From the IMG/VR virus record IMGVR_UViG_2737471854_000004, positions 1-49,583 of that record: a stretch of DNA of 49,583 nt. One strand, written 5' to 3'. The notes below the pieces were generated by a model. The model saw only the letters and a list, made by a program, of their open reading frames with translations. It had not been told where the DNA came from and did not search any database. Shown here piece after piece: positions 1-49,583 of this stretch. Each line of letters opens with the position of its first letter. Within the stretch, counting starts at the first letter, position 1. The position numbers and the translations under genes are program-made. This stretch comes from a virus. Its lineage: Duplodnaviria; Heunggongvirae; Uroviricota; Caudoviricetes.

Positions 1-246
1 CTACGATAACCCACTCTTTTGTTGCCCCATTTTTGCCCCTTTTGCAGCGTTTTGCCCCATTTTTGCCACCGAAAAATGCGAGAATTTCTCAATCTGTAGC
101 CTGCAAATTGCGCCCATGAATTCTTTCCAAGAGAATCAGTTTCGGCTGGAAATCATTCAATACTCACACTAAAACAAAAAGCCCGCTTATGGTGGACTGC
201 AGGCTTTTAGATTCCGTGATTTAAAAACAATAGTTATAGAAACAAA

Positions 247-1455
247 TTACCAGCCTACAGCAATACCCCCTCCGATTACTGCTCCATCAGTATTATTCCA
301 TGAAGACGATGCACGAATATTGGTGTTTTCATTAAGTTTGTATTGAACACCAACAGCTACTGCATTACCGTTTCTATAGTTACCAACCCCAACGCCGGCA
401 CTAAATGTCTGGTTATTCACATACGGGATATTGGTCATTGCTGCTACGGAAGCAATACCTGCATTAGCTTTTTTAGCATTAGCTTCTATCTTATCATTCA
501 GCTGCTTAAATGTTGAATTTATCTTCCCATTAATTTGGTTAAATTTTGTATCAGTATATGCGAATGATTCTTGTTTTGCTGATTGTATGTTTTTATTAAT
601 AACACCGTTATTTTTCGTAACTTCCTGATCAGTGTATGCCAGTGATTCATTCTTGGCATTATTAATATTCTGATTTATCACAGCATTATTTTTGGTAACC
701 TGCTGATCTGTATATGCCAGTGATTCATTCTTGGCATTATTGATGTTTTGATTAATTACGGTATTATTTTTAGCTATCTCATTCCCAGTATAATCTTTCA
801 GTTGCTTAACGTTAACACCATCAGTATCCTCAGTACCTGCGGCAACATGGGTCAGTTGTCGATTAGTATTACCCGTCCCAAAAGATACACTATACTCTCT
901 GTCAGTTGTACTTCCCCCGCCGATGGCAACACTATTATTATGTTCAGCCACACTCTGTGAGCCTAGTGAGATGGCATTTTCTGCATTAGATGTAGCCCCT
1001 ACACCAATAGCTAATGTATCTCCTGCAGTCGCCTGGGCGGAGGAACCAAATGCAACACTGTTTTCCCCGGTTGCTTTAGACGCAGCACCTACACTTGTAG
1101 AATTAGCGACTGCCTCACTACCCGCACCATTTGCTATAGCTGAATCACCGTTTACTTTACTAAATGAACCAATGGCTACCGAGTTATTTCCAACAACATT
1201 TGCATTTGCGCCAATAGCTGACGATGAGTTACCTTGAGATGAAGAATATGAACCAATTGCAGTATTATAGGCTCCTTCGGTTTTTGAAACAGCGCCAATT
1301 GTTGTAGAAGAAGAACCTGAAGCATTTGCATATGCACCAATAGCTGTCGCATTACTATCAGTTGCCTGGCTATTATCACCGGCATTATAAGAATTATATG
1401 CATAAGAATTTGCTGAAACTGTAAATATAACAGAGGCTACAAATAGTTTTTTCAT
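247..1455 (-). CDS. Trimeric autotransporter adhesin, YadA/Eib-like (prophage moron)
   Basis: ORF 247..1497; likely start at MKKLFVASVIFTVSANSYA (signal peptide). Many NSxAxG head-type repeats, three tandem stalk repeats (NAVINQNINNAKNESLAYTDQQVTK), C-terminal membrane anchor ending GGIAVGW. Confidence 0.8.
   Translation of the reverse strand: MKKLFVASVIFTVSANSYAYNSYNAGDNSQATDSNATAIGAYANASGSSSTTIGAVSKTEGAYNTAIGSYSSSQGNSSSAIGANANVVGNNSVAIGSFSKVNGDSAIANGAGSEAVANSTSVGAASKATGENSVAFGSSAQATAGDTLAIGVGATSNAENAISLGSQSVAEHNNSVAIGGGSTTDREYSVSFGTGNTNRQLTHVAAGTEDTDGVNVKQLKDYTGNEIAKNNTVINQNINNAKNESLAYTDQQVTKNNAVINQNINNAKNESLAYTDQEVTKNNGVINKNIQSAKQESFAYTDTKFNQINGKINSTFKQLNDKIEANAKKANAGIASVAAMTNIPYVNNQTFSAGVGVGNYRNGNAVAVGVQYKLNENTNIRASSSWNNTDGAVIGGGIAVGW
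540..780. repeat. Tandem ~78-bp coding repeats inside the adhesin stalk
   Basis: Near-identical DNA units 'gtatatgccagtgattcattcttggcattatt...' repeated 2-3 times; correspond to the repeated peptide ESLAYTDQQVTKNNAVINQNINNAKN. Confidence 0.6.
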
Positions 1456-2250
1456 AGAAATGACGTATGTTAAATAGATTGAAAAGATAAGATTCAAATC
1501 AATTAAATGACGCTTTAAAAATAAGCGGCAGGATTTTATTCATCTGATAAAAATAGCGCAAGAGTTGTCTTATATGGAATATTCAGATAAGTCTTATTGA
1601 AAAAACGGTATAACAAATACATAACATTACGGCCATTATAAATACATTATAAAAATTACAGAGATATTTAATTAAATCCAAAGCATTTTTTCAATATGGA
1701 TTTCGAAGAACTTGTTATAGTACATTAATCAATCAATTATAGGTATTTCGCTCACTGTTCATATAGTTTTAATACATCAATGCATAAGAACATTTTCTCA
1801 TTCATAAAAGCGATAAAAACTGTTGTACCTTATATTGTTAATGTTTGGTAACAAAGACAAATCCAACAAGGCATTGATCATCCCCTATGATACCCATAGA
1901 AAGAATTATCTGAAATATAATAACGATATAAAGTATATTATTGCTAATGAAACTATATGATAGCTTCACATTCAGCAATACCTGCTCAACCTTATCTCTG
2001 GAAATGAACATTGCTAACTTTCCTACTCCTTAATCGTTCTCCCAGAGCGCATCATCCACACCGACAATCCCCTCAGGCATCAGCCAGGTGACATTTTCCG
2101 CTAATGGGCTGGTTCAGAGATAAATAGTGCGTCCCCGGAAGCCAAGTCAAAGAGCATTTTTCCCCTGTGACCTTCAACGGCTACTTACTGTTTAAAAACA
2201 GCTACGATGCCAGCATAGATACTCTTGAATACGATGTACTACGTTTTTTC

Positions 2251-2604
2251 TTATTCTGGACTGAACTCCCTAACCTGCTTCAAATCCAGGAGATTGCTCA
2301 GTTCCTCTTTCATTTCACGCTGATGACGATAAATCTCATTATTGCGATCAACCTGCGCCATAGCTGCAGCCAGCTCCTCCAGTTCCGTCATCGACAGTTT
2401 CACCTGCTGATTATCAGCATCACTCCATGTCATAACGTCCCACTGCCCTGAGTCAGCCCCTGCAGCCATTACCACCGGGTAAAGGCGGGCCAGCGAGTCG
2501 GGGCCGCCATTCCAGGTGTGTCCGTTCCATTCGAATGTGAACGGCTGCGCTTCCTGTTCTGTGCGCCACACCTCGATTTCCCGCTTTCTGGCATCCTTTC
2601 CCAC
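2251..2604 (-). pseudogene. Tail-fibre-assembly-like C-terminal fragment (remnant)
   Basis: 117-aa ORF with a motif (FTFEWNGHTWNG...) that I read as Tfa/DUF4376-like; no upstream partner gene; lies in a GC-rich block with broken frames. Confidence 0.3.
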
Positions 2605-3003
2605 GGCGATAAGTTCTGGCGTGACGGTGAACGCAGGGCTGTCCAGTGGCGTTTTGTTTTCGTCTCGTCCATGACGGTTTTGACAGCCTTTGGCGTGGCT
2701 GCCAGTACTTCGCTGTCGTTGTCTGTATCACTACAGAGTTGCGCCAGACCTTTTTTGTCGTGGAAGCATTGCTTCCCTTCAGATCATCAACTATCCATTG
2801 CGCCTCGTCCCTGTGCTGTTTCGCGCTCTGCTGCGCCTGCACCACAGTTTCCTGTCACCACGTCGGCAACTGTGCGCATCACACCTCTGAGGTGTTTACC
2901 CGGGATTTCAGAGTTATGTGGCATCCGTACATGGGGATGCCTGCGCCATCAATCAGCGCACCTGATATCACTACAGACATAGTTTTTCTCGCGATAAATT
3001 AAA

Positions 3004-3549
3004 TCAGGAAGAGGCTTCCAGAGAGACGGGCCATTCAATGGCGTTATATGAGGATTTATCAGTGATGGTGCTGAAATCCATCGCCTGCAGCGATTTCGCG
3101 TAAATGCGGTACGCTTTCAGCTTCTCCCTGTCGTCGTCACTGATTAATCCCAGCAGCAGGTCTTTTTCCCATTCGCTGGTCATGATGCTGACCCGTTGTA
3201 ACAGGGCATCGCGCTCATCTTCCGCTTTAAGTTTGTAGTCGAAGACAAATTTATCGTCGCGGTAAAACCAGTAACCAGGCACGGTAATACGGCGGTTAGC
3301 GGTAATATCAGGAACTTCAATAACACTGGCGTTACGGGGTTCAATGCCTGTCACATCCTTACCGACCCATACCACGCGCCCGTCTCCGGTGTAAACCATT
3401 TTTATGGTGTCACTGGCAAAATTTTTCAGCTCTTCATACCAGTTTTGGTCATCTTCCGAAAAAAGCCAGGTGATACCATGTTGTTTTGTCATCTGATATT
3501 GTTCTGCGGTTTTCGGATTGCCTGCAGTAATATTTTTTAAATGCAACAT
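3004..3549 (-). CDS. Tail fibre assembly protein (Tfa/gpU-like)
   Basis: 181 aa immediately downstream of the tail fibre gene; C-terminal ...KLKAYRIYAKSLQAMD...IEWP motif typical of tail fibre chaperones. Confidence 0.7.
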   Translation of the reverse strand: MLHLKNITAGNPKTAEQYQMTKQHGITWLFSEDDQNWYEELKNFASDTIKMVYTGDGRVVWVGKDVTGIEPRNASVIEVPDITANRRITVPGYWFYRDDKFVFDYKLKAEDERDALLQRVSIMTSEWEKDLLLGLISDDDREKLKAYRIYAKSLQAMDFSTITDKSSYNAIEWPVSLEASS

Positions 3550-3551
3550 TG

Positions 3552-5105
3552 TTAAACACTCGCCACGTTATACCAGGTGCCGTTAATCAGTTTCTGAAGC
3601 GGTCGGTAATACACGCCGTTGACGTTATCCGCTGAATTTTTACCAGTATCCGATATCGATATCCCTGACAATCCGTGTCCCGCAGGAGCGTGATATGTCC
3701 AAGAGATTACATTGCTGCCAGGTTTGTAATACATTTCGGAACCATAGCGCACATCCTGCACGCCGCCATTTCGCTGCTGATAACGGGCATCGAAATTTCC
3801 ATAGTTTGATGGGGTCATCTGTCCGTTTACAGCGAATGTGATACTGCCATCGGTATTTCTCTGGCTGTAAAAATGCCAGCCGGAATCATCACCAAGCTCT
3901 GCAACTACAGGTCGGGATGAATTACCCCATAAATTAAACGTTGCGTTTTTCGTGGAGTTGTTGGCGCTGGATAACGTGAATTTTTTAGCATTTCCGGCCT
4001 GAATATTTTTTAACGCTATCGCCACACCATTCTGGAAACGAAATACATGCTGTCCATTCGCATAAACATCCAGAATGCCGTCGCCGTTTTGTTTTATACC
4101 TGTATCGTTATCCCCGAAAGCAATTGAGTTTCCGCCCAGCGCGTTCTGAACGCCGATACCCAGTGCACCATTGACCTGAGAACCACCGCCAACAGACACT
4201 TTATGCGACATGGATATCTCTCCTGTCCGCAAATTAATGGTGAGCGGACGCAGGGGACCAATATCTCCATTCTCGCCCTGACCTTCACTAGTAGGGATAA
4301 GGTGCAGGCACTCTTCAGAACGGCGAAAAATAAGGCCAAAAGCCTCGTTAAAAATCCTCAATGCATTAACACCACGTATTTTCAGCTCCCCGGTCATCAA
4401 ATCACCAGATTTTTTTACATATCGCAGATCAAAATCTGAATAGATATTGCCGGGGTTTATCACACTGAAATAGCTTTTCTCGCTATCAAGAAGGCAAATC
4501 AAAGGAATACCCTTAATGATATCATTCGCTACCAGCTCGGACTTGTTCCCCTTATAAAGTGGGAACGTACCAAGAACCTTTCCGCCTAGTGTTAGTTGAA
4601 GTGTCGCCGCGTTGGTATTGTTCTGAACGGGGAAAACTATAATCGGGGTTCGTAGCGTCCAATCTGTACCTCCATTAACAAAAAACGTCGAGGGAAGTTC
4701 CAGCGTCAGTGCGTTTGCAGTGCCACCAGTAACACCCGCAATATAATGACCGCTCTGAAGCTGCGCTATCTGTACGAAATAGTTTTCCGAACCACGCGTG
4801 GCAAAGTTAGCCACAACATCATTAAGGGACCAACCTTTCGCGGTTGTTCCTTCCTGCCCACGAATGACTTTCAACACATCACCGCTTACCGATACCAAGT
4901 GACAAATCTCAAATGCAGACTCTTTATTATCGGTAAGCGTAATTTTTGCATAGACGCGTTGCCCGTTCGATTTATTTTCAAAATCGGCAGAAAGCAATTT
5001 TGCAAATTTAGCCCCTGTACCGGGCATTACCGGAATATCAGTCTGAATCGTGGTGATATCACCAGCCAGTGCTGAAACAACGTTATTGCCGAACCCAAGA
5101 ATCAT
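3552..5105 (-). CDS. Tail fibre protein
   Basis: 517 aa, Gly/Asn/Thr-rich, follows baseplate genes and precedes tfa with a 3-nt gap. Confidence 0.7.
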   Translation of the reverse strand: MILGFGNNVVSALAGDITTIQTDIPVMPGTGAKFAKLLSADFENKSNGQRVYAKITLTDNKESAFEICHLVSVSGDVLKVIRGQEGTTAKGWSLNDVVANFATRGSENYFVQIAQLQSGHYIAGVTGGTANALTLELPSTFFVNGGTDWTLRTPIIVFPVQNNTNAATLQLTLGGKVLGTFPLYKGNKSELVANDIIKGIPLICLLDSEKSYFSVINPGNIYSDFDLRYVKKSGDLMTGELKIRGVNALRIFNEAFGLIFRRSEECLHLIPTSEGQGENGDIGPLRPLTINLRTGEISMSHKVSVGGGSQVNGALGIGVQNALGGNSIAFGDNDTGIKQNGDGILDVYANGQHVFRFQNGVAIALKNIQAGNAKKFTLSSANNSTKNATFNLWGNSSRPVVAELGDDSGWHFYSQRNTDGSITFAVNGQMTPSNYGNFDARYQQRNGGVQDVRYGSEMYYKPGSNVISWTYHAPAGHGLSGISISDTGKNSADNVNGVYYRPLQKLINGTWYNVASV

Positions 5106-5728
5106 TTTTGAATCACCGTTGTTGCATAAGAATAAATAAAAGGGAGTTTTACATATTTCTGGTCAATGGCATCTTTCAGAAAATAGCCTATACCATCACC
5201 ATATTCTGGTATATGAATAGAAAAAACACTGTCCGACACAGTCACGCTCACATCAAAAGTGTGCTGCAACGGCGGGTCTATTCCATTTTTTCCATGAATG
5301 AACCGCGCCACACGGCGCTTTAACCAGTCAATGCAGAAATGCGAACCGTCAGCCTTATAAAAATTCCACGTTAATATTCGTTTGAAATAATCATCAGGAA
5401 CATACGATGCCTGCCCCGGAACGTAATTCCGCATTGCTGCATACGGGATCGTATTGTATTCAATGGTATCGTATGCGCCGCGTGCAATAGCCTCCTCGGA
5501 AACCTGTAGTAAAGGCCTTTCAACGCCATAAATCCCGAGTGCAATCCAGTCCAGCAATTGCCCGGTTATTGATTCCGATGTCCAGCATGGCAATGCCAGA
5601 TTGTTGAGTGAATCGAGGTATTCCTGAGCAATTTCATTGTATGCATCAAAGAACGCAACAACATTCGGATCATCTCTGTACTGCACAAATGGATAAGCAG
5701 GGAGAATTTTCTCAGTCAGATATTGCAT
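5102..5728 (-). CDS. Baseplate/tail protein (Mu gp48 / DUF2313-like)
   Basis: Position between baseplate J and tail fibre; start moved to the internal Met (MQYLTEK) to give a short overlap with the upstream gene. Confidence 0.45.
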   Translation of the reverse strand: MQYLTEKILPAYPFVQYRDDPNVVAFFDAYNEIAQEYLDSLNNLALPCWTSESITGQLLDWIALGIYGVERPLLQVSEEAIARGAYDTIEYNTIPYAAMRNYVPGQASYVPDDYFKRILTWNFYKADGSHFCIDWLKRRVARFIHGKNGIDPPLQHTFDVSVTVSDSVFSIHIPEYGDGIGYFLKDAIDQKYVKLPFIYSYATTVIQK

Positions 5729-6938
5729 ACTTGTTGACCTGAACCTGTGATGCCACCGTTGAAAAATAGGAATAGGTATCGCCATAAACCAGGCTTGTAT
5801 CTTTCGCCGGAAGAACAATGTGGCCGTTAATACCAATGCTCACACTGATTGTTGAGATCAACGTCGAATCAACCAGCAACCTGACAGAACTGGTAAAAAT
5901 ATCCTGGATACGCAGAAGATTTATCGGGTGTCCGACTTCAATTGAATTGATGTAATCAGCAACGTTTTGCTGCACAGCCATAGCAATACCCGCCGGATCA
6001 ACATAATCATCAGACACCGTGTTCCAGGTGATTAGCACCATGACGTTTTGTGATGACGGGATAACGAACGGCACCTGATAAACGTCCGGCGAAACGGTTA
6101 TTGAAACCGTGCGTTTTTCCACTGCCGCACCGGATGGATTGCTTACATCGTTGGTCAGTTTCGAAATATCCGGTACAGATTTGTAAATCGCATAAGCCAC
6201 ATCATACGGATCACCGCCACCAACAACCGCAACCCATTTCCCCAGCGACGACTGCCGGAAAGAAATCAGGTTTTCTCGCACACCGCTTACTGATTTGAGC
6301 ATCGCTTTAAAGCAATCCGGAGTTCCCTGCACACCAAACATGCCGGACTCCATGACTTCGGCGCGGTAAGATGCCCACGTCTGCGCCTCCTGACCTGGCA
6401 TCCCTGCGGTAAGGTTCGTGCATTTTACAGGCTGGTCTTTTGGTACTGAGGTAATAACCTGCGTCACAGTCCCTTCCGGCACAGCCCATGAGCCTGACGT
6501 TGTGGCCACACAGTAGACTGGTTCAGACTGCCCACTTTCCGGCACCACCGTATCGCGGGAAACTGCATACTGGTAGTTGCCATCACCGACAACAAATCCT
6601 TTAGGGATACCAAACCCCGGCAACGCCTCAAATACCACGTATACCGCAGTATTTGTACTTAATCCCTTCTGTGCTCCATAAATGTTTCCGAGTTGCATCA
6701 GTAACGGAATATTCGCACCGTATGGGCTTACGGAGTTAATAAGGTCCACCCGCGCCTGGTCTATTAATGCCAGCGCCCCGATAGCCGTGCTGGCAAGGTC
6801 TGTAATAAGTCCCGCCGGAAGGTTGGCTGTATATCTAGGTACTTTTTCAGCAACTCTGATGATAAGATTTGCAAGCAAATCATTGGGTGGCGTAGGCTGC
6901 GCCCCCGCACTGGTCATAGTAATTGGTATTTCTGACAT
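5712..6938 (-). CDS. Baseplate J-like protein
   Basis: 408 aa; size and position typical of baseplate J / Mu gp47 family upstream of the tail fibre. Confidence 0.55.
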   Translation of the reverse strand: MSEIPITMTSAGAQPTPPNDLLANLIIRVAEKVPRYTANLPAGLITDLASTAIGALALIDQARVDLINSVSPYGANIPLLMQLGNIYGAQKGLSTNTAVYVVFEALPGFGIPKGFVVGDGNYQYAVSRDTVVPESGQSEPVYCVATTSGSWAVPEGTVTQVITSVPKDQPVKCTNLTAGMPGQEAQTWASYRAEVMESGMFGVQGTPDCFKAMLKSVSGVRENLISFRQSSLGKWVAVVGGGDPYDVAYAIYKSVPDISKLTNDVSNPSGAAVEKRTVSITVSPDVYQVPFVIPSSQNVMVLITWNTVSDDYVDPAGIAMAVQQNVADYINSIEVGHPINLLRIQDIFTSSVRLLVDSTLISTISVSIGINGHIVLPAKDTSLVYGDTYSYFSTVASQVQVNKYAISD

Positions 6939-6978: not shown

Positions 6979-8139
6979 TTATTCAACCTCTTCTAAACTG
7001 CTCACTCTGGACCCTCGGCGGAAATTATCATCATTTTTAACATACTCGTATGAATCCAGAATCAAACCAGATATGCGAAGTATATCTTCAGGATTAGTTA
7101 TATGTATCCTTTTACCATCCGTATCAAGTCGAGCTCGTCTTATTTCATTCAACTGAACTTCACTAAGCGAAATAGGTAAAGTTATAAATGAAGATTTTTT
7201 ATCATAAAATCTTAACAGCCATCTATTGGTTTTACCATTCAATAGTACGCCGAAATATGACTCAGTATCTTTATATTCTATATTATCTTCTGTTTGTATG
7301 ATTTGTTTTACCCTTTCAAATAGCTCCAATTCTTTGGCTGTGGTTATTATGTTGGGGTTTTCTTCATCAACAATGGCGTTATTAACTTGTGTATCCGTTG
7401 CATCATTTTCTTTAGTTTGCTCTACCGGTTGTGTAGATAGCCCGGAAACCACCATTGCGCTAACAGCGCGCTCAACGGCCTGTTTAACTAATGGAGTCAC
7501 GAACTCAAGAAATCTCTGATTAAGTTGTCTCTCAATATTTGAACGACTAGCAACATATCGAACAAACTCCAGATCAACTTCACGAAGACTAGAACTGATT
7601 GTTTTAGTAAATGAATTCAAATAAACACTTTCTTCAGCCAGTGTCCGTAAAGCCTCTGGTTTGAATTTATCATAACGAAAACGAAATAATTGTGTAATAT
7701 CGGAGTGAGTTAGAGAATCCATTCTTATTTTTAAAAACGGCGTTGAATCCATTATGTTTTTTTGTTTCAAATCCGTAAAAAAACGCCATTCAACACCATT
7801 TGTAATGGCTGATATAGTAACTTCCGGTGTTGAATTAAAATATCTTGATAGCTGTGGGCAGTGATTATCAATTTGTTCTGAAAACGATTTCGCCTCAATG
7901 AACATCACAGGAACATCATGACAAAATAAAGCGTAATCAACCCGTTCATTAGCCTTAACCCCGGGGAAGTCAGCACTATACTCAGCTTTGACTTTTCTTG
8001 GATCATACGGAGTAAAACCAAGAATATCTAGTAATGGCATAATGAGTGCTTGTTTTGTCGTTTCTTCAGTTGTACAAAACACCCCCATTTTTGCAACATG
8101 CTCTGTGTGTATTTTTAACTTATTTGCAAAATTTTCCAT
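6979..8139 (-). CDS. Cargo protein with N-terminal HsdR-N/Mrr-type PD-(D/E)xK nuclease-fold domain; C-terminal domain unknown
   Basis: ORF 6979..8154; GGAGG RBS favours the second ATG (MENFANK). Motif TEETTKQALIMPLLDILGF...VDYALF...VMFIEAKS...QLSRYF. AT-rich and non-overlapping, unlike its neighbours. Confidence 0.6.
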   Translation of the reverse strand: MENFANKLKIHTEHVAKMGVFCTTEETTKQALIMPLLDILGFTPYDPRKVKAEYSADFPGVKANERVDYALFCHDVPVMFIEAKSFSEQIDNHCPQLSRYFNSTPEVTISAITNGVEWRFFTDLKQKNIMDSTPFLKIRMDSLTHSDITQLFRFRYDKFKPEALRTLAEESVYLNSFTKTISSSLREVDLEFVRYVASRSNIERQLNQRFLEFVTPLVKQAVERAVSAMVVSGLSTQPVEQTKENDATDTQVNNAIVDEENPNIITTAKELELFERVKQIIQTEDNIEYKDTESYFGVLLNGKTNRWLLRFYDKKSSFITLPISLSEVQLNEIRRARLDTDGKRIHITNPEDILRISGLILDSYEYVKNDDNFRRGSRVSSLEEVE

Positions 8140-8288
8140 GCTTGTCTCCTCCATGGTAACAATATGTATTTTGCAAATCCGAAATAATATATGTCAATAT
8201 GCTCCAGCTTAGAAAATTACTCGCCCCCCTAAAATATCTCTCTACAGCACTCCAAACCAAGGTAAAAGTTTTATCATAAAACTGTGAT

Positions 8289-8636
8289 TCATACCGGCAC
8301 CTGCGTCCGGTAACTGGTCCCATTAAAAAACACAACATCGATGTTATAGGTGGGGTTATCTGCTCCATCTACCTTTGAAATTGCCAGTGATGCAAAATAC
8401 CCAGCAAACTGTTGCTGAACCATGTTCACATAGTAGTCTGGGTAAATCTGCTGCACGATGCACTGCTGCGCAGGAATACCGTAATTCGCGTAAAACGGCG
8501 ACTCCCCCAATCCCAGCTTTAACGTCTGAATGAGCGTCGTCAGCCAGCCGTAGGAGAAATCACCGTTGGCGTCAGATTCTACTGCAACCCATTTTTTGTT
8601 GCCGTTCGCGTCGGTGACGCGGCCCCATGTTCTCAT
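8289..8636 (-). CDS. Putative baseplate protein (gp46/gp25-position)
   Basis: 115 aa between the spike-like and J-like genes; assignment by position only. Confidence 0.35.
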   Translation of the reverse strand: MRTWGRVTDANGNKKWVAVESDANGDFSYGWLTTLIQTLKLGLGESPFYANYGIPAQQCIVQQIYPDYYVNMVQQQFAGYFASLAISKVDGADNPTYNIDVVFFNGTSYRTQVPV

Positions 8637-8836: not shown

Positions 8837-8847
8837 GGTGAGAAACA

Positions 8848-8885
8848 GAAAACCCCGACTGGGCCAACAGTCGGGGTTTTCGTTT
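8848..8885. terminator. Hairpin followed by T-runs (terminator-like, both strands)
   Basis: CCCCGACTGggccaaCAGTCGGGG followed by TTTTCGTTTT on the + strand and a T-rich run on the - strand. Confidence 0.5.
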
Positions 8886-8918
8886 TATGGTTAGAATTTA
8901 AAGTGAAATGAACCGGTA

Positions 8919-23626: not shown

Positions 23627-23640
23627 AAATATCCTGATTT

Positions 23641-40278: not shown

Positions 40279-40284
40279 GGTCAG

Positions 40285-41091: not shown

Positions 41092-41154
41092 AATTGCCCC
41101 GTATGATGCTGCCCGGTTGCTTAGAATAAGCACAAACAGCATGAAAACTTTTGC

Positions 41155-41577
41155 TTAATGAACAATGACAGAATCGTCGGAAGACCCGCCGCCGCTGAAA
41201 TGCGCTTTCCGGTAAACGGCTTGGACTGCATCATCATGCGCATCAATTGCCGTACTTAACGCTTCCTGCGCCGCCAGTAATGCACGGCGCTCCAGGGTAT
41301 CGAAGATGCAGAGTCGGTGACGCAGCTCGCGCGGAAGGATTGCCAGAATTGCTGGGATCAGCTTCTGAATTTTTTCTCTTTGCGTTTTCGTTTCACCTTT
41401 CAACCAACGGTGATAGATATTCTGCTGATTGTTCCAGTCCTTGCCTGGAACCAGGGGCAATTCGCCGCCCCCCTGGCGCAGATATTCTTCAGTAATTGCA
41501 TTGGCTACCCATGCCTGCCCTTTTTCGGCTGCCAGGGCTAACAACACTGATTCGATGTGCTCATGCTTGATTTTCAT
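41155..41577 (-). CDS. ydaT: YdaT-like protein (Rac toxin-like)
   Basis: 140 aa, matches Rac YdaT in length and sequence as I recall it; synteny ydaS-ydaT-ydaU-ydaV. Confidence 0.6.
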   Translation of the reverse strand: MKIKHEHIESVLLALAAEKGQAWVANAITEEYLRQGGGELPLVPGKDWNNQQNIYHRWLKGETKTQREKIQKLIPAILAILPRELRHRLCIFDTLERRALLAAQEALSTAIDAHDDAVQAVYRKAHFSGGGSSDDSVIVH

Positions 41578-41828
41578 GAATCAACTCCCATCTGCTTTTT
41601 CGTAGTAGTTTTATTTCTGCCAATAGTTAAAATTGCATCGGCAGAAAATAATCCGTTTGATGCATGAGCGATTTTTTCAGCGTAATTTGTTTCGCCGGTA
41701 TATTCTGTGCGAGGCAATTTTCCGTTATCCATCCATTTGTAGATTGCTCTTTGGCTGACACCACAAACGTCGGCCACAACAGAAACGCGAACAGTTTTGA
41801 TTACATCTTCAAGTGTTTTCTGGTTCAT
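41574..41828 (-). CDS. ydaS: Cro-like HTH regulator, YdaS-like
   Basis: ORF 41574..41900; start moved to MNQKT; HTH region VADVCGVSQRAIYKW; divergent from the repressor gene. Confidence 0.55.
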   Translation of the reverse strand: MNQKTLEDVIKTVRVSVVADVCGVSQRAIYKWMDNGKLPRTEYTGETNYAEKIAHASNGLFSADAILTIGRNKTTTKKQMGVDS

Positions 41829-41907
41829 ATCACCCTCACAATGTGAACTTTGAGTACATGCTATAACAGAACTGACAGTACATTCAAGAGCGAATATCAT
41901 TGAACTT
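41829..41907. promoter_or_regulatory. Divergent immunity promoter/operator region (racR-like and ydaS-like)
   Basis: 79-bp gap between divergent starts with repeated TGAAC/GTTCA and AGTACAT motifs. Confidence 0.45.
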
Positions 41908-42327
41908 ATGGTTCATGAAGATAAAGCGCGTAAAGAGTTCGCCAGTAGGCTTGCGCTAGCCTGTGAAAACGCTGGTTATGAACAACATGGAAGGCAGGCA
42001 GAAATTGCCCGTCGAATGAAATTAACACCAAAAGCGGTTAGCAAATGGTTTAATGGCGAAACAATTCCTCGCCGAGAGAAATTAAGGGAATTAGCAACAC
42101 TCATTGGAACAACACCAACCTATCTTTTGGGAGAGGATACAGAAGAAAGTGGACAGGTACGTTTCTATCAGGAGTTAAATCCAAGACAAAAAATCATCAT
42201 TGACCTTCTGGACGAGCTCCCTGACAGTGAGACAGATGAACTTTTAAAAACTCTTGAGGAGAAAAAACAGAAGTACAATGCAATTTACGAAGAGTTAGCA
42301 CGAAAGAAAAAACAAAAAGCCTCTTAA
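41908..42327 (+). CDS. racR: Prophage repressor (XRE-family HTH), RacR-like
   Basis: 139 aa; HTH MKLTPKAVSKWFNGETIP; divergent from the cro-like gene; Rac synteny. True start may lie upstream at a non-ATG codon. Confidence 0.5.
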   Translation: MVHEDKARKEFASRLALACENAGYEQHGRQAEIARRMKLTPKAVSKWFNGETIPRREKLRELATLIGTTPTYLLGEDTEESGQVRFYQELNPRQKIIIDLLDELPDSETDELLKTLEEKKQKYNAIYEELARKKKQKAS

Positions 42328-42614: not shown

Positions 42615-42749
42615 ATGGTGCATTACGAAGTAGTTCAGTATTTGATGGATTGTTGCGGCATCACTTACAACCAGGCTGTGCAGGCTTTACGCAGCAACGA
42701 CTGGGATCTCTGGCAGGCAGAAGCCTCTATCCGCAACAACAAGATGTGA
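42615..42749 (+). CDS. ydaG: Rac prophage small protein YdaG
   Basis: 44 aa, MVHYEVVQYLMDCCGITYNQAVQALRSNDWDLWQAEASIRNNKM; not in the ORF track because it is under 60 aa. Confidence 0.6.
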   Translation: MVHYEVVQYLMDCCGITYNQAVQALRSNDWDLWQAEASIRNNKM

Positions 42750-42759
42750 GGTGCGAAAA

Positions 42760-42912
42760 ATGCAAAAAATCGACCTCGGCAATAACGAATCCATGGTGTG
42801 CGGCGTGTTCCCCAACCAAGATGGAACGTTCACTGCTATGACGTATACCAAAAGCAAAACATTTAAAACAGAAACAGGCGCACGTCGCTGGCTTGCCAGA
42901 AATACTTGCTAA
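42760..42912 (+). CDS. ydaF: Rac prophage small protein YdaF
   Basis: 50 aa, MQKIDLGNNESMVCGVFPNQDGTFTAMTYTKSKTFKTETGARRWLARNTC. Confidence 0.6.
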   Translation: MQKIDLGNNESMVCGVFPNQDGTFTAMTYTKSKTFKTETGARRWLARNTC

Positions 42913-43333
42913 TCCATTATTTGGATTAATTCAATATTCTCGCTGTAGGGGTATAGCAGAAACCACCAAAGCCCGGAGGTGGTGAAATAAAACCGGACAC
43001 AACACGAAGGCGCATTTCCGATATCCATAAAGAGTCGGTCTTGTCTGTTAAATTTAAATGGTGGGAGTGCGCCTCCGGTTGTAAATAACGACATTGCTGT
43101 GTGTAGTCCTGGCGGCATCAGTTTTTTTCTTGAAGTTCGGCTGATGTCCGCCCTTTTTAAAGTGAATTTTGTGATGCGGTGAATGCGGCTAAGCGCACGT
43201 GGCACAGTTAAAAGTCATGTTAGTCCTTATTGGTTTGGGTGGGAAAGCCGACTGTAATTGTTAACTGGTTGCAGTCACCTGGAGGCACCAGGCACCGCAT
43301 CAACAAAGTTCATTTGTAAAAATGGAGATAATT

Positions 43334-43555
43334 ATGATTGCACATCACTTCGGAACTGATGAAATACCACGTCAGTGTGTGACTCCTGGCGATTATGTTC
43401 TTCATGAAGGCCGGACGTATATTGCCTCGGCAAACAATATTAAAAAGCGAAAACTATATATTCGTAACCTGACCACAAAAACATGCATTACTGACCGCAT
43501 GATTAAAGTCTTCCTCGGTCGTGATGGTTTACCTGTAAAGGCGGAGTCATGGTGA
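43334..43555 (+). CDS. kilR: Cell-division inhibitor KilR
   Basis: 73 aa from [14 protein letters not shown]..., matching Rac KilR as I recall it. Confidence 0.7.
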
Positions 43556-43726
43556 TGACTAAGAAAATAAAATGTGCTTACCACCTTTGCAAAAAAGACG
43601 TTGAAGAAAGCAAAGCTATTGAAAGAATGCTTCACTTCATGCACGGGATTTTATCAAAAGACGAACCGAGAAAATATTGCAGTGAAGCTTGTGCCGAAAA
43701 AGACCAGATGGCACATGAACTTTAAT
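43556..43726 (+). CDS. ydaE: Small Cys-rich protein YdaE
   Basis: 56 aa, [14 protein letters not shown]...YCSEACAEKDQMAHEL; below the ORF-track size cutoff. Confidence 0.6.
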
Positions 43727-43799
43727 TAATTGACTATTCGAAACTGAATTTATGCCAGAAATGGCAGGTATTCGCTCAACCTTAATTAAGGAGAAAAAC

Positions 43800-44075
43800 A
43801 TGATTACCAATTATGAAGCCACTGTTGTAACTACCGATGACATTGTTCACGAGGTGAATCTGGAAGGAAAGCGCATTGGCTACGTAATTAAAACAGAAAA
43901 TAAAGAAACCCCATTCACTGTGGTTGATATCGATGGTCCATCAGGCAACGTAAAAACACTTGATGAAGGTGTCAAAAAAATGTGCCTGGTGCATATCGGA
44001 AAGAATCTGCCCGCAGAAAAAAAAGCCGAATTTCTGGCAACTCTAATTGCAATGAAATTAAAAGGTGAAATCTGA
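43800..44075 (+). CDS. racC: RacC
   Basis: ORF 43752..44075; start moved to MITNYEATVV after AAGGAG RBS; immediately upstream of recE. Confidence 0.65.
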   Translation: MITNYEATVVTTDDIVHEVNLEGKRIGYVIKTENKETPFTVVDIDGPSGNVKTLDEGVKKMCLVHIGKNLPAEKKAEFLATLIAMKLKGEI

Positions 44076-44176
44076 AAGAAATAGCCTGCGTATGGCGCAG
44101 GCTATGAACAGTGTGTATCCGGCAAGATCATTCACTGAACAAAACGAATTTTAATCTGAGTTGAGGTTAAAAAACA

Positions 44177-46798
44177 ATGAGCACAAAACCACTCTTCCTG
44201 TTACGGAAAGCGAAAAAATCATCCGGTGAACCTGACGTCGTCCTGTGGGCAAGCAACGATTTTGAATCGACCTGTGCCACTCTGGACTACCTGATCGTTA
44301 AGTCAGGTAAAAAACTGAGCAGCTATTTTAAAGCTGTTGCCACGAATTTTCCTGTCGTTAATGACCTGCCCGCTGAAGGTGAGATCGATTTTACCTGGAG
44401 TGAACGCTATCAACTCAGCAAAGACTCCATGACATGGGAACTAAAACCGGGAGCAGCACCAGACAACGCTCACTATCAAGGCAATACCAACGTCAACGGC
44501 GAAGACATGACTGAGATTGAGGAGAATATGCTACTCCCAATTTCTGGCCAGGAACTGCCCATTCGTTGGCTTGCTCAACACGGCAGCGAAAAACCGGTAA
44601 CGCACGTTTCACGCGACGGACTCCAGGCATTACACATTGCTCGGGCTGAAGAACTACCGGCTGTTACTGCCCTGGCTGTTTCCCACAAAACCAGCCTGCT
44701 CGACCCGCTGGAAATTCGCGAACTCCACAAACTGGTTCGTGACACTGACAAAGTTTTCCCTAATCCTGGTAATTCAAACCTGGGACTGATAACTGCTTTT
44801 TTCGAAGCATACCTGAACGCTGACTACACCGATCGAGGACTGCTGACAAAAGAGTGGATGAAGGGTAATCGTGTTTCACACATCACTCGCACGGCTTCCG
44901 GTGCTAATGCTGGCGGCGGAAACCTCACCGATCGCGGCGAAGGTTTCGTACACGATCTGACGTCACTGGCGCGCGACGTAGCCACTGGCGTACTGGCCCG
45001 CTCAATGGATCTGGACATCTATAACCTTCATCCGGCACACGCTAAACGCATTGAGGAAATTATCGCTGAAAATAAACTGCCCTTTTCTGTTTTCCGCGAC
45101 AAATTCATCACCATGCCTGGCGGGCTGGATTATTCCCGCGCCATCGTGGTTGCGTCCGTAAAAGAAGCACCAATTGGGATCGAGGTCATCCCCGCGCACG
45201 TCACTGAATATCTGAACAAAGTACTGACTGAAACCGATCATGCCAACCCTGATCCGGAAATCGTGGATATTGCCTGCGGTCGCTCCTCTGCCCCAATACC
45301 GCAGCGAGTAACAGAAGAAGGAAAACAGGATGATGAAGAAAAACCGCAACCATCTGGAACAACGGCAGATGAACAGGGAGAGGCTGAAACAATGGAACCG
45401 GACGCAACTAAACATCATCAGGACACGCAGCCGCTGGATGCTCAGTCACAGGTAAATTCTGTTGATGCGAAATATCAGGAACTGCGGGCAGAACTCCATA
45501 AAGCCCGGAAAAACATTCCATCAAAAAATCCTGTCGATGCCGATAAATTGCTTGCTGCATCACGTGGTGAATTTGTTGACGGAATTAGCGACCCGAACAA
45601 TCCGAAATGGGTTAAGGGGATCCAGACTCGCGATTCTGTGTACCAGAACCAGCCAGAAACGGAACAAAACACGCCAGAAACGGAAAAAACCAGCCCGGAT
45701 GTGAAACAACCTGAGCCAGTAGTGCAACAGGAACCGGAAATAGTCTGCAATGCCTGCGGTCAGACTGGCGGGGATAACTGCCCTGACTGTGGTGCGGTGA
45801 TGGGCGACGCAACATACCAGGAAACATTCGATGAAGAGAATCAGGTTGAAGCTAAGGAAAATGATCCGGAGGAAATGGAAGGCGCTGAACATCCGCACAA
45901 TGAGAATGCTGGCAGCGATCCGCATCACGATTGCAGTGATGAAACTGGCGAAGTCGCAGATCCCGTAATCGTAGAAGACATAGAGCCAGGTATTTATTAC
46001 GGAATTTCGAATGAGAATTACCACGCGGGTCCCGGTGTCAGTAAGTCTCAGCTCGACGACATTGCTGATACTCCGGCACTGTATTTGTGGCGTAAAAATG
46101 CCCCCGTGGACACCACAAAGACAAAAACGCTCGATTTAGGAACCGCTTTCCACTGCCGGGTACTTGAACCGGAAGAATTCAGTAACCGCTTTATCGTAGC
46201 ACCTGAATTTAACCGCCGTACAAACGCCGGAAAAGAAGAAGAGAAAGCGTTTCTGATGGAATGCGCAAGCACAGGAAAAACGGTTATCACTGCGGAAGAA
46301 GGCTGGAAAATTGAACTCATGTATCAAAGCGTTATGGCTTTGCCGCTGGGGCAATGGCTTGTTGAAAGCGTCGGACACGCTGAATCATCAATTTACTGGG
46401 AAGATCCTGAAACAGGAATTTTGTGTCGGTGCCGTCCGGACAAAATTATCCCTGAATTTCACTGGATTATGGACGTGAAAACTACGGCGGATATTCAACG
46501 ATTCAAAACCGCTTATTACGACTACCGCTATCACGTTCAGGATGCATTCTACAGTGACGGTTATGAAGCACAGTTTGGAGTGCAGCCAACTTTCGTTTTT
46601 CTGGTTGCCAGCACAACTATTGAATGCGGACGTTATCCGGTTGAAATTTTCATGATGGGCGAAGAAGCAAAACTGGCAGGTCAGCTGGAATATCACCGCA
46701 ATCTGCGAACCCTGGCTGACTGCCTCAATACCGATGAATGGCCAGCTATTAAGACGTTATCACTGCCCCGCTGGGCTAAGGAATATGCAAATGACTAA
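44177..46798 (+). CDS. recE: Exodeoxyribonuclease VIII (RecE)
   Basis: 873 aa; N-terminus [30 protein letters not shown] and C-terminal nuclease domain match RecE; followed by recT. Confidence 0.9.
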
Positions 46799-47600
46799 GC
46801 AACCACCAATCGCAAAAGCCGATCTGCAAAAAACTCAGGGAAACCGTGCACCAGCAGCAATTAAAAATAATGACGTGATTAGTTTTATTAACCAGCCATC
46901 AATGAAAGAGCAACTGGCAGCAGCTCTTCCACGCCATATGACGGCTGAACGTATGATCCGTATCGCCACCACAGAAATTCGTAAAGTTCCGGCGTTAGGA
47001 AACTGTGACACTATGAGTTTTGTCAGTGCAATCGTACAGTGTTCACAGCTCGGACTTGAGCCCGGTAGCGCCCTCGGTCATGCATATTTACTGCCTTTTG
47101 GTAATAAAAACGAAAAGAGCGGTAAAAAAAACGTTCAGCTAATCATTGGCTATCGCGGCATGATTGATCTGGCTCGCCGTTCAGGTCAAATCGCCAGCCT
47201 GTCAGCCCGTGTTGTCCGTGAAGGTGACAAGTTTAATTTCGAATTTGGCCTTGATGAAAAGTTAATACACCGCCCAGGAGAAAACGAAGATGCCCCGGTT
47301 ACCCACGTCTATGCTGTCGCAAGACTGAAAGACGGAGGTACTCAGTTTGAAGTTATGACGCGCAAACAGATTGAGCTGGTGCGCAGCCAGAGTAAAGCTG
47401 GTAATAACGGGCCGTGGGTAACTCACTGGGAAGAAATGGCAAAGAAAACGGCTATTCGTCGCCTGTTCAAATATCTGCCCGTATCAATTGAGATCCAGCG
47501 TGCAGTATCAATGGATGAAAAGGAACCACTGACAATCGATCCTGCAGATTCCTCTGTATTAACCGGGGAATACAGTGTAATCGATAATTCAGAGGAATAA
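46791..47600 (+). CDS. recT: Single-strand annealing recombinase RecT
   Basis: 269 aa from [17 protein letters not shown]..., essentially the RecT sequence; 8-nt overlap with recE. Confidence 0.9.
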
Positions 47601-47655
47601 TTCAGCCTGGCGGTGTAATGCACCGCGAACTTGAAATATTTTTATGAGAAAAGTT

Positions 47656-47850
47656 ATGAGATATGACAATGTTAAACCATGTCCATTTTGTGGTTGTCCA
47701 TCAGTAACGGTGAAAGCCATTTCAGGATATTACCGAGCGAAGTGTAACGGATGCGAATCCCGAACCGGTTATGGTGGAAGTGAAAAAGAAGCACTCGAAA
47801 GATGGAATAAACGAACCACTGGAAATAATAATGGAGGTGTTCATGTATAA
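47656..47850 (+). CDS. ralR: Restriction-alleviation / type I toxin RalR (Lar)
   Basis: 64 aa, MRYDNVKPCPFCGCPSVTVKAISGYYRAKCNGCESRTGYGG...; ORF track extends 4 codons upstream. Confidence 0.8.
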   Translation: MRYDNVKPCPFCGCPSVTVKAISGYYRAKCNGCESRTGYGGSEKEALERWNKRTTGNNNGGVHV

Positions 47851-48031
47851 AATTACCGCCACTATTGAAAAGGAAGGTGGCACTCCTACTAACTGGACAA
47901 GATATTCAAAATCTAAACTAACGAAATCAGAATGCGAAAAAATGCTCTCAGGTAAAAAAGAAGCAGGCGTTTCCAGAGAGCAGAAAGTAAAACTGATTAA
48001 TTTTAATTGCGAGAAACTTCAGTCCTCGTGA
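47843..48031 (+). CDS. ydaC: Rac prophage protein YdaC
   Basis: 62 aa from MYKITATIEKEGG... after GGAGGTG RBS; overlaps the ralR stop. Confidence 0.6.
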   Translation: MYKITATIEKEGGTPTNWTRYSKSKLTKSECEKMLSGKKEAGVSREQKVKLINFNCEKLQSS

Positions 48032-48130
48032 ATTGCATTGTATTCAAATTAAAACTTCATAGCTGATTATTAATAATCAACATCGGGCGTCAATTTCAGT
48101 CTAACATTGGCGCCTGCCAGAGGTGATGCG

Positions 48131-48346
48131 ATGGCACAAGTAATCTTTAATGAAGAGTGGATGGTTGAATACGGCCTGATGCTTCGCACTGGTCTGGGGG
48201 CCAGACAAATTGAAGCATACCGCCAGAACTGTTGGGTGGAGGGCTTCCACTTCAAACGAGTATCTCCTTTAGGTAAGCCAGACAGCAAACGAGGGATTAT
48301 CTGGTACAACTATCCAAAGATAAATCAGTTTATCAAAGACTCATGA
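48131..48346 (+). CDS. xisR: Excisionase XisR (YdaQ)
   Basis: 71 aa from [31 protein letters not shown]...; immediately upstream of the integrase. Confidence 0.75.
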
Positions 48347-48347
48347 T

Positions 48348-49583
48348 ATGTCTAAATTACCAACAGGTGTCGAGATTAGAGGTAGATACATTCGCATCTG
48401 GTTCATGTTTCGAGGAAAACGATGTCGGGAAACATTAAAAGGCTGGGAGATTACAAACAGTAATATTAAAAAGGCCGGAAATTTAAGAGCACTGATAGTT
48501 CATGAAATAAACTCCGGTGAATTTGAGTATTTAAGACGTTTTCCCCAGTCCAGCACTGGGGCAAAAATGGTGACAACGAGAGTCATAAAAACGTTCGGGG
48601 AGCTTTGTGATATCTGGACAAAAATTAAAGAGACAGAGTTAACAACAAACACAATGAAGAAAACGAAATCACAATTAAAAACACTCAGAATAATAATTTG
48701 TGAAAGTACCCCGATATCACATATACGTTATAGCGATATCTTAAACTACCGGAATGAACTGCTGCATGGAGAAACGCTTTACCTGGATAATCCAAGATCC
48801 AACAAAAAAGGAAGAACCGTGCGCACAGTTGATAACTATATCGCCCTGCTCTGTTCGCTGTTACGTTTTGCGTATCAGTCGGGATTTATATCAACCAAAC
48901 CATTTGAAGGAGTAAAAAAATTACAGCGAAACAGAATAAAGCCTGATCCGTTATCTAAAACAGAATTCAATGCATTAATGGAAAGTGAAAAAGGACAGAG
49001 CCAGAACTTGTGGAAATTTGCCGTTTACTCAGGACTTCGTCACGGGGAACTGGCAGCTCTGGCGTGGGAGGATGTGGATCTCGAAAAGGGAATAGTGAAT
49101 GTCAGAAGAAACCTGACGATACTTGATATGTTCGGTCCCCCAAAAACAAATGCCGGGATCCGGACAGTAACACTACTGCAGCCTGCTCTTGAAGCACTGA
49201 AGGAGCAATACAAACTGACCGGGCATCATCGCAAAAGCGAAATCACCTTTTATCATCGGGAGTACGGCAGAACCGAAAAGCAAAAACTGCATTTTGTTTT
49301 CATGCCCAGGGTGTGTAACGGAAAACAAAAACCTTATTACTCGGTAAGCAGTTTGGGGGCAAGGTGGAATGCAGCAGTAAAACGTGCTGGTATTCGCCGC
49401 CGTAATCCGTACCATACGCGGCATACTTTTGCCTGCTGGCTGTTGACGGCAGGAGCGAACCCGGCATTTATAGCCAGCCAAATGGGGCATGAAACTGCGC
49501 AGATGGTGTATGAAATTTACGGTATGTGGATTGATGACATGAACGACGAACAGATAGCCATGTTGAATGCGCGGTTATCATAG
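48348..49583 (+). CDS. intR: Prophage integrase IntR (tyrosine recombinase)
   Basis: 411 aa, MSKLPTGVEIRGRYIRIWFMFRGKRCRETLKGW...; C-terminal R...H..R...Y catalytic region; stop is the last codon of the window. Confidence 0.85.
   Translation: MSKLPTGVEIRGRYIRIWFMFRGKRCRETLKGWEITNSNIKKAGNLRALIVHEINSGEFEYLRRFPQSSTGAKMVTTRVIKTFGELCDIWTKIKETELTTNTMKKTKSQLKTLRIIICESTPISHIRYSDILNYRNELLHGETLYLDNPRSNKKGRTVRTVDNYIALLCSLLRFAYQSGFISTKPFEGVKKLQRNRIKPDPLSKTEFNALMESEKGQSQNLWKFAVYSGLRHGELAALAWEDVDLEKGIVNVRRNLTILDMFGPPKTNAGIRTVTLLQPALEALKEQYKLTGHHRKSEITFYHREYGRTEKQKLHFVFMPRVCNGKQKPYYSVSSLGARWNAAVKRAGIRRRNPYHTRHTFACWLLTAGANPAFIASQMGHETAQMVYEIYGMWIDDMNDEQIAMLNARLS

Follow-up and report, generated by a model that had tools for sequence, protein, structure and literature searches.

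According to the author's letter (PMC5917428), full-sized Rac-like prophages were reported by Jobling in 2016 (Pathog Dis 74:ftw001). The prophage at ttcA in E. coli W (ATCC 9637) was named Rac*W in the genome paper of Archer et al. 2011 (PMC3032704), and Sp10 and CP-933R, which are Rac-like prophages of O157:H7 likewise at ttcA, were reported to be transmissible by Liu et al. (PMC4632033). Here we describe a 49,583-nucleotide stretch of DNA, IMG/VR record IMGVR_UViG_2737471854_000004, that appears to hold nearly the whole of a single lambdoid prophage of the ttcA locus. Below, “the window” always means this entire stretch. The prophage type is already known, and by gene content the window is a non-toxigenic member of the full-sized Rac-like family, as is Rac*W. 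Our preferred reading, to which we assign a probability of about 0.75, is that the window is a known full-size Rac-like prophage that has most likely been made defective recently by frameshifts.

Closest described prophages and position at ttcA

Only two phage records closely share the virion module of the window: “Actinobacillus phage vB_Apl-pPE4” and Rac-SA53 (KU052037). The latter, a prophage of type II enterotoxigenic E. coli, encodes the LT-IIa and EplBA toxins and is annotated with the same attachment (att) site beside ttcA and uspF. All Rac-SA53 structural proteins from terS to tail2, with the exception of the 45-amino acid rac58 open reading frame (ORF), match the window in order. Identities between the virion proteins are mostly 91–100%, with lower values for the tape measure (55%) and the fibre (78%). 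IntR, Xis, kil, ydaT and the module running from terS to the first fibre chaperone are alike in the two elements. Rac-SA53 has an IS1, and it differs in its RecT and RecE C-terminus, its immunity region, its replication loader and its endolysin. It also carries toxin genes, its moron slot holds an antirepressor, its second fibre genes are intact, and it is without the YadA-like adhesin gene of the window. Neither eltIIaA/B nor eplA/B has a match in the window.

Rac*W covers 74% of the window at a mean identity of 96%, in the same order and with all virion frames open. The two share K-12-type recET, a 139-amino acid helix-turn-helix (HTH) repressor at the same position, ydaT/U/V, the lysis cassette, the pair of genes for a ParB-like protein and a TET-associated glycosyltransferase (TAGT), and the virion module. 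The DUF2213 gene (440 amino acids) and a 156-amino acid gene are unsplit in Rac*W. Where the window has an island encoding a HEPN protein, Rac*W has DUF262/AAA genes, and where the window has tRNA-Arg plus an AraC-type gene, Rac*W has tRNA-Thr/tRNA-Gly. Its moron slot holds a truncated antirepressor, its second fibre is intact (1046 amino acids), and no YadA-like gene lies within the stretch compared.

The vB_Apl-pPE4 record (PP818812.1), ∼95% identical to the window, has its genes in prophage order and an integrase gene at one end. Because of this layout and an implausible host name, we draw no evidence of particle production from it. Literature searches on Rac-SA53, vB_Apl-pPE4 and Escherichia phage Tritos (considered below for its repressor) yielded nothing usable.

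As judged from the ORF listing, base composition and a tRNA scan, the window starts with ∼36 kb of leftward genes. Next comes a divergent immunity region and then a rightward arm, which terminates exactly at the intR stop codon, also the window end. Megablast against 5,426 complete E. coli genomes placed the element at the Rac locus, the closest relatives lying between uspF and ttcA. Head-gene segments were found in 82 of these genomes (∼1.5%), and 39 genomes contain 80% or more of the window's first 25 kb. NWU_3 matches positions 30259–49583 at 99.98% identity, with ttcA directly after intR, and positions 550–10452 at 99.7%, adjoining uspF; past position 700 the latter alignment contains a single mismatch and one 1-bp indel. 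EC11 carries the entire late region at 99.3% in the same genomic place.

The 26-bp Rac att core TTGTTCAGGTTGTATTGTTCTTTCTT flanks the prophage on both sides in K-12 and NWU_3. It is not found inside the window, which stops short of both sites, and distances were taken from the alignments of relatives: the left core lies ∼86–110 bp outside position 1 (NWU_3, EC11) and the right core 76–101 bp past the window end, within ttcA (NWU_3). Because the relatives' cores lie ∼80–110 bp outside, we take the window to be the att-bounded element trimmed at both ends. The first-pass annotation, made from the sequence without database searches, had treated the structural genes as part of one prophage whose att sites should be sought in flanking sequence. 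A single lambdoid gene order and one pair of Rac att cores in the nearest relatives bear this out, the cores being found on both sides in NWU_3 and on the left in EC11.

K-12 Rac shares with the window the ttcA site, the int-xis-ral-recT-recE-racC-ydaE-kilR arm and ydaT/U/V. It differs in racR/ydaS, sieB and a late remnant made up of rzpR/rzoR, trkG, ynaK', ydaY, ynaA, lomR, stfR, tfaR and pinR, and it has no sheath or baseplate genes. The part of it from rzpR to ynaA maps onto another relative, vB_EcoS-666R9 (ON470614; hereafter 666R9), a Rac-type prophage whose head is P22-coat-like and whose H-M-L-K-I tail resembles that of lambda. K-12 Rac and 666R9 are 98.5–99.9% identical in nucleotide sequence across rzpR/rzoR, trkG and ynaK, and then ydaY and ynaA. 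Relative to 666R9, the K-12 ynaK/ydaY junction is an 11.6-kb deletion that removed everything from the ParB C-terminus to the tail tube, and K-12 ynaA is the N-terminal 312 residues of the lambda-H-like tape measure. Since the late remnant maps to 666R9 in this way, K-12 Rac is best described as a deletion derivative of a siphovirus-type phage. In the window, K-12 ydaY, ynaA, rzpR/rzoR and trkG have no match, and stfR and tfaR give faint, short matches only. The suggestion that this DNA might show what an intact Rac-type phage looks like thus fails for K-12 Rac, whose late remnant comes from a siphovirus-type module; the window does not represent its ancestral virion.

With 666R9 the window has in common the early arm, a CI/cro allele that is 96% identical in nucleotide sequence, and a block comprising ParB, TAGT and the N-terminal part of terS, but not the P22-coat-like head, lambda-like tail, S-R-Rz lysis cassette and trkG of 666R9. 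Homology to 666R9 extends from 25166 to 28007 at 96% and stops inside terS, and homology to Rac-SA53 spans 13169–25898. The junction is therefore placed in terS near 25166, the N-terminal part of the gene being common with 666R9 and the C-terminal part specific to the myovirus module. A mosaic of a Rac-type early arm and a contractile-tail module had been proposed at first pass, and this recombination junction confirms it.

Frameshifts in the late region

Seven single-base deletions and one 3-bp insertion set the window apart from EC11. Indels were polarised against A17, Rac-SA53, pPE4 and NWU_3. A one-base deletion at 2652 is common to the window and NWU_3. Four deletions are private to the window, and so is a fifth, at 38447, seen against NWU_3:

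1600: A7 to A6, intergenic
18186: AGC to AC, in a conserved 156-amino acid gene
20826: C5 to C4, in the DUF2213 gene
28463: GG to G, in the lipoprotein gene after the endolysin
38447: A7 to A6, in the cargo island

The deletion at 20826 leaves DUF2213 ORFs of 202 and 238 amino acids in place of one of 440 in EC11 and 430 in Rac-SA53. That at 18186 leaves ORFs of 86 and 79 amino acids from a gene that lies downstream of the capsid gene and is a single ORF in EC11, A17, Rac-SA53 and pPE4. Each of these two deletions is absent from all 88 other copies in complete genomes. The 63-amino acid lipoprotein gene (∼28326–28517; lipobox LVGC in EC11) carries a nonsense change in addition to the deletion at 28463. 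What remains of the second fibre gene corresponds to residues 1–47 and 209–287 of the 1061-amino acid Rac-SA53 tail3 product, in different frames, and its chaperone is reduced to residues 61–184 of tail4. This remnant state is common to EC11, A17 and NWU_3, and both genes are intact in Rac-SA53 and Rac*W.

Searching for the truncated 202-amino acid product led to the Logan assembly of SRR2239615 (a 32.8-kb contig; two samples). The contig is identical to window positions 10820–31428 over 20,609 bp, with no gap, and includes all three deletions of that interval. C4 at 20826 is also present in ERR6688977 (Logan), without the deletion at 18186. The window had been described as apparently intact, with all major modules complete apart from decaying cargo. 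In the sequence as it stands, the DUF2213 and 156-amino acid genes are split, with both frameshifts reproduced exactly by the independent SRR2239615 assembly, the lipoprotein gene is disrupted, and only fragments of the second fibre pair are left. The remark on the cargo was correct, as it includes an integrase pseudogene and a 756-amino acid gene frameshifted at 38447.

One further assembly, GCA_033660265.1 (JAWVHN010000001.1), was rejected as independent support for the deletion at 20826, as it undercalls nearly all homopolymers of at least six bases. Its homopolymer losses fragment the sheath, terminase and tape measure genes, and it is unfit for judging gene integrity.

Late genes have pN/pS values (the ratio of nonsynonymous to synonymous polymorphism) of 0.095 against Rac-SA53 and 0.07–0.11 against A17 and EC11. 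Values this low mean that the module was under selection until very recently, and hence that any inactivation is young. In the South African bovine O155:H21 strains NWU_1, NWU_3 and NWU_4, a clean 19.8-kb deletion begins at the hub gene and ends a short way upstream of the gene of AraC type (NWU_3 is without window positions 10453–30258). Over 29 kb outside the YadA repeats, these strains differ from the window by two substitutions, one mismatch at an alignment edge and two single-base indels. The loss of late genes in this lineage fits ongoing decay.

Were the single-base deletions sequencing or assembly errors, the prophage would be fully intact and inducible, which we regard as unlikely. 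Several observations nevertheless count in favour of errors and against a defective prophage. Four of the five private deletions lie in or near homopolymers (A7 to A6 twice, C5 to C4 and GG to G), and against NWU_3 the one-base deletions equal the clean substitutions in number (two of each in 29 kb, plus the alignment-edge mismatch), a pattern that can also reflect sequencing error. SRR2239615 may itself be the run from which the window was assembled. Purifying selection on the late genes is strong up to the nearest relatives, and the remaining late ORFs are all full length. On the other side, the k-mer assembly of SRR2239615 is identical over 20.6 kb, deletions included; the window retains T8, A8 and C7 homopolymers that the error-prone GCA_033660265.1 shortens; and the deletion at 18186 lies outside any homopolymer. 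An intact prophage would also be at odds with the nonsense substitution in the lipoprotein gene, the degraded second fibre set, the deletion of late genes in a sister lineage, and a repressor without an S24 domain in an element with neither an antirepressor nor a convincing LexA box. We consider the lesions probably real. Real frameshifts could still be tolerated if DUF2213 were made as two coupled products, a protease-like N-terminal and a scaffold-like C-terminal one, in a viable phage. The split ORFs meet in a GTGA overlap, where the first ORF's TGA stop lies over an in-frame GTG of the second, and DUF2213 function could partly survive through coupled expression of the C-terminal part; the functions of DUF2213 and of the 156-amino acid gene are themselves predictions. 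Phage Mu is annotated with a nested scaffold (Z) within protease gene I, and C4 at 20826 occurs in two other assemblies, of prophages 0.4–2% different from the window. However, one of these two is GCA_033660265.1 with its systematic undercalling, none of the 88 complete-genome copies is split, reinitiation is a proposal only, and the frameshift in the 156-amino acid gene has no such rationale. We hold a tolerated split to be improbable.

Two other explanations concern the origin of the structural module rather than its state. In favour of a separate prophage standing in tandem with a Rac remnant are the integrase pseudogene (36172–36645) and the low-GC island between the replication and nin genes. 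That pseudogene, however, sits within a variable cargo slot, and the same gene order is found in Rac-SA53, pPE4, EC11, A17 and E. coli W with other inserts at the island position. The order is canonically lambdoid, with Q, lysis cassette and terminase each present once, and the att cores of relatives are at the two outer ends only, all of which makes a tandem pair exceedingly improbable. It must be added, as a reservation on the boundaries, that the att sites are known from relatives and not from the window's own flanks. Nor is it at all probable that the window is the ancestral complete K-12 Rac, virion included. The early arms are 98–99% identical at the same locus and the ParB-like gene matches ynaK, but K-12 ydaY, ynaA, rzpR/rzoR and trkG are without match in the window and the genes from rzpR to ynaA map to 666R9 at 98.5–99.9%. 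A full-size Rac-like prophage with recent frameshifts is thus the reading adopted below.

Gene content of the modules

The early arm, replication genes and immunity region comprise the following features:

48131..49583, plus strand: xisR and intR (100% amino acid identity to K-12 XisR and IntR)
42615..48049, plus strand: ydaG, ydaF, kilR, ydaE, racC, recE, recT, ralR and rcbA (92–100% amino acid identity to K-12 Rac)
41574..42327, both strands: immunity region, with a cro-like HTH gene (minus) and a 139-amino acid CI-like repressor gene at 41908–42327 (plus)
39532..41577, minus strand: ydaV, ydaU and ydaT (replication and cII-like, of K-12 Rac type; 97–99% amino acid identity)

By blastn, nucleotide identity to K-12 Rac is 98.8% over 42938–49583 (intR to kilR), 95.4% over ydaF/ydaG and 97.8% over ydaT/U/V. 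The products of intR, xisR, rcbA, ralR, recT, recE, racC, ydaE and kilR are 97–100% identical to those of K-12 Rac and in the same order (IntR, XisR, RalR, RacC and YdaE 100%, RecT 98%, RecE 97%); YdaF and YdaG are 92–93% identical. Rfam recognised the RalA small RNA on the minus strand of the early-left arm, and a sok RNA. RacR, YdaS and SieB have no tblastn match in the window (E ≤ 1e-3). The 139-amino acid repressor is 100% identical to the CI protein of Tritos and 99.3% identical to that of 666R9. The first-pass annotation had matched the whole recET, immunity and replication block to Rac. This holds for the early arm and ydaT/U/V (92–100%) and not for immunity, with no RacR, YdaS or SieB match. 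To judge from these alleles, the prophage should be heteroimmune to K-12 Rac. We take the difference in RacR/YdaS as heteroimmunity, and not as a reason to place the window outside the Rac-like group, because the immunity region of Rac-SA53 also differs.

In Pfam searches the repressor contained HTH_3 alone, with no S24 peptidase domain. No homologue of ant was found in the window; Rac-SA53 and pPE4 have an antirepressor in the baseplate moron slot, where the window has an HSDR_N gene. The sole match to a LexA box lies inside the tape measure gene, and none in the window is plausible. With no S24 domain, antirepressor or plausible LexA box, SOS induction is not predicted from sequence; other induction routes are possible.

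Late control, lysis, packaging and head genes are all on the minus strand:

31550..33765, minus strand: nin region and late regulator, with a Q-like antiterminator, DUF1364, a NinB-like gene and hok/sok (phrog_753, phrog_131, phrog_319; Rfam sok)
28326..29598, minus strand: lysis cassette, with holins at 29206–29598 and 28938–29216, an M15 endolysin at 28558–28941 and the broken lipoprotein gene (phrog_198, phrog_217, phrog_465)
26241..27957, minus strand: ParB/Srx-like protein at 27166–27957 and TAGT-family glycosyltransferase at 26241–27194, upstream of terS
24959..26050, minus strand: small terminase, with the mosaic junction near 25166 (phrog_51)
21409..24969, minus strand: head morphogenesis protein, portal at 22187–23626 and large terminase at 23641–24969 (phrog_324, phrog_146, phrog_2 TerL)
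20107..21428, minus strand: DUF2213 protease/scaffold-like gene, split (Pfam DUF2213; weak matches to head-maturation-protease PHROGs)
18454..20114, minus strand: major capsid protein at 18454–19482 and a 205-amino acid head gene (phrog_6671; weak match to phrog_264 major head)
17928..18424, minus strand: conserved 156/165-amino acid head-region gene, split (one ORF in relatives)
16120..17928, minus strand: three conserved head-tail genes of 314, 146–151 and 146 amino acids (PHROGs without assigned function; 98–99.7% amino acid identity to Rac-SA53 rac47 to rac49)

The nin and late regulator genes are 74–93% identical in amino acids to q, ybcO and irsA of Rac-SA53. The lysis cassette is 94.8% identical to that of phiP27, and K-12 rzpR/rzoR have no counterpart in the window. 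The cassette had been called different from that of Rac, and so it is: two holins and an M15 endopeptidase of phiP27 type, as against the Rz remnant of K-12. The TAGT gene (Pfam TAGT, 9.9e-35) and the ParB-like gene (phrog_620), directly upstream of terS, may together form a DNA-modification module; no TET/JBP dioxygenase was found anywhere in the window. The pair is 96% conserved in siphovirus-type Rac-like prophages, and K-12 ynaK is a truncated remnant equal to the first 86 amino acids of the ParB-like gene (95% identical). The portal matches phrog_146 (1.1e-74) and Pfam Phage_portal_3. Note that RefSeq names a homologue of the gene at 22187–23626 “anti-CBASS protein Acb1 family protein”; we doubt this name, given the matches to portal families and the portal position. 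The major capsid protein and the 205-amino acid head protein are 99.7% and 100% identical to those of Rac-SA53.

The contractile-tail module follows, again on the minus strand:

14783..16120, minus strand: tail sheath (phrog_205 at 4.7e-53)
14328..14771, minus strand: putative tail tube protein (position, and a fold search on a low-confidence model)
13649..14343, minus strand: tail assembly chaperone gene, carrying a candidate site for −1 programmed frameshifting (slippery T TTT TTA; position between tube and tape measure)
11574..13652, minus strand: tape measure with a lytic transglycosylase domain (phrog_7694, phrog_2276)
8289..11570, minus strand: baseplate/tail-tip genes, comprising a 115-amino acid gene, a baseplate protein at 8919–9632, the hub at 9632–10639, and 88- and 222-amino acid genes
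5102..6938, minus strand: baseplate J at 5712–6938 and a downstream gene in baseplate position at 5102–5728 (phrog_6, 1.3e-36; Pfam Baseplate_J, 6.9e-08)
3004..5105, minus strand: primary tail fibre at 3552–5105 and fibre assembly protein at 3004–3549 (phrog_136, phrog_6859, phrog_454)
2086..2980, minus strand: decayed second tail-fibre gene and chaperone (annotated as pseudogenes in relatives)

A contractile tail, as recognised at first pass, is well supported at the level of gene families by the sheath, the hub (phrog_196 baseplate hub at 4.7e-43), Baseplate_J and a tape measure with a transglycosylase domain. The sheath is 36–38% identical over 98% of its length to those of Yersinia vB_YenM phages, Pantoea PdC23, and Klebsiella Chronis, RothC and RothD. 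The model of the tube protein reached a predicted local distance difference test (pLDDT) score of 46.6 in single-sequence AlphaFold2 and 53.6 with a 38-sequence alignment; this weak model together with gene position suggests a tube. Sequence searches of the PDB with sheath and tube gave no significant match. In the chaperone gene, T TTT TTA occurs at nucleotide 393 and the −1 frame stays open for ∼100 further codons, down to 13649; it is read as a tail chaperone because slippery site and open −1 frame match the usual arrangement of such genes. Of the structural genes, that for the tape measure has diverged furthest (55% identity to Rac-SA53). The baseplate/tail-tip genes are collinear with Rac-SA53 rac54 to rac59 at 91–99% amino acid identity, and baseplate J and the product of 5102–5728 are 98–99.5% identical to those of rac63 and rac64. 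The fibre genes are 91% identical to phiP27 in nucleotide sequence, and their proteins are 30–48% identical to Mu S/U. In the virion module, Pfam matches were limited to Baseplate_J, DUF2213 and Phage_portal_3.

Mu-like and SfV-like phages had been named as the comparison for this region. Both Mu and SfV have contractile tails, as the window does, but in tblastn searches with 22 virion proteins (E ≤ 0.01) the fibre and its chaperone alone matched Mu, the other 20 did not, and none matched SfV. By sequence the virion module is neither Mu-like nor SfV-like. The nearest isolated phages are vB_YenM_29.18 and its kin, PdC23, Chronis, RothC and RothD, which are distant virion relatives from other hosts; a Rac-type early region is not known in them from the present data. 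In the literature searched, neither a micrograph nor a report of induction was found for the module.

Cargo is found at four positions:

247..1455, minus strand: YadA-like adhesin gene with a variable number of 78-bp repeats, at the prophage end (RefSeq annotation in NWU_3/EC11; PHROG adhesin and tail matches)
6979..8154, minus strand: low-GC moron in the baseplate operon, a solitary HSDR_N endonuclease-like gene (Pfam HSDR_N, 5.6e-14; phrog_4225 endonuclease)
30148..31320, minus strand: moron slot between Q and the holins, with tRNA-Arg(UCU) and an AraC-family regulator (ARAGORN, Rfam; Pfam HTH_18, HTH_AraC)
33800..39450: low-GC cargo island, with a HEPN_LA2681 protein, a 92-amino acid gene, an integrase pseudogene at 36172–36645 and a 756-amino acid gene

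The YadA-like gene has two fewer 78-bp repeats (156 bp, in frame) than in NWU_3, EC11 and A17. The HSDR_N (“type I restriction endonuclease”) gene has a GC fraction of 0.36 and sits exactly where Rac-SA53 has ant, rac61 and rac62; in Rac-SA53, pPE4 and E. coli W this slot holds an antirepressor plus one or two other genes. The slot between Q and the holins holds the eplBA toxin genes in Rac-SA53 and tRNA-Thr and tRNA-Gly in E. coli W. The 5.6-kb island, between ydaV and the nin genes, has a GC fraction of 0.31–0.35. Its HEPN_LA2681 protein has 473 amino acids (Pfam, 4.2e-31), and a Phage_integrase domain marks the integrase pseudogene. The 756-amino acid gene is frameshifted at 38447 relative to NWU_3, whose own annotation records an internal stop in the island, and its protein is without match in Pfam, PHROG or PADLOC. 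None of the cargo genes, the HSDR_N gene included, was assigned by PADLOC to a known defence system. Other Rac-like prophages have different cargo at the island position.

Predicted life cycle and significance

The prophage would be integrated by IntR/XisR into the Rac att site in ttcA. A CI-like repressor would face the cro-like gene, with kil-recET-ral-xis-int as the leftward operon. The rightward operon would comprise the cII-like gene ydaT, ydaU/ydaV for replication, the nin genes and the Q-like antiterminator, and Q would drive a late operon of holins, M15 endolysin, ParB-like protein, TAGT, terminase, head, contractile tail, baseplate and fibres. The family is probably a product of modular exchange, with an early arm of K-12 Rac type, an immunity allele and a ParB-TAGT-terS(N-terminal) block common with siphovirus-type Rac-like prophages, and a virion module that, from the C-terminal part of terS on, would be of a rare enterobacterial temperate-myovirus type. 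Recent lesions would then have split the DUF2213 and head-region genes, broken the lipoprotein gene and removed the second fibre set, probably ending virion production. The defective copy would still be repressible, excisable and able to express recET and the cargo genes.

Beyond annotation the significance is small, as the type is already in the literature and in GenBank. Should the lesions instead be artefactual or tolerated, which we think is not likely, the window would represent a temperate myovirus that is live and non-toxigenic and has a RecET arm of K-12 type. It would then provide a tractable living Rac-type model and a natural fused-versus-split protease/scaffold pair. The copies in E. 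coli W and EC11, with unbroken frames, are better candidates for induction than that of the window. For users of Rac as a model, the point to note is that the late remnant of K-12 Rac derives from a siphovirus-type relative and not from the module described here. Rac-type early arms circulate with at least two virion modules, joined inside terS.

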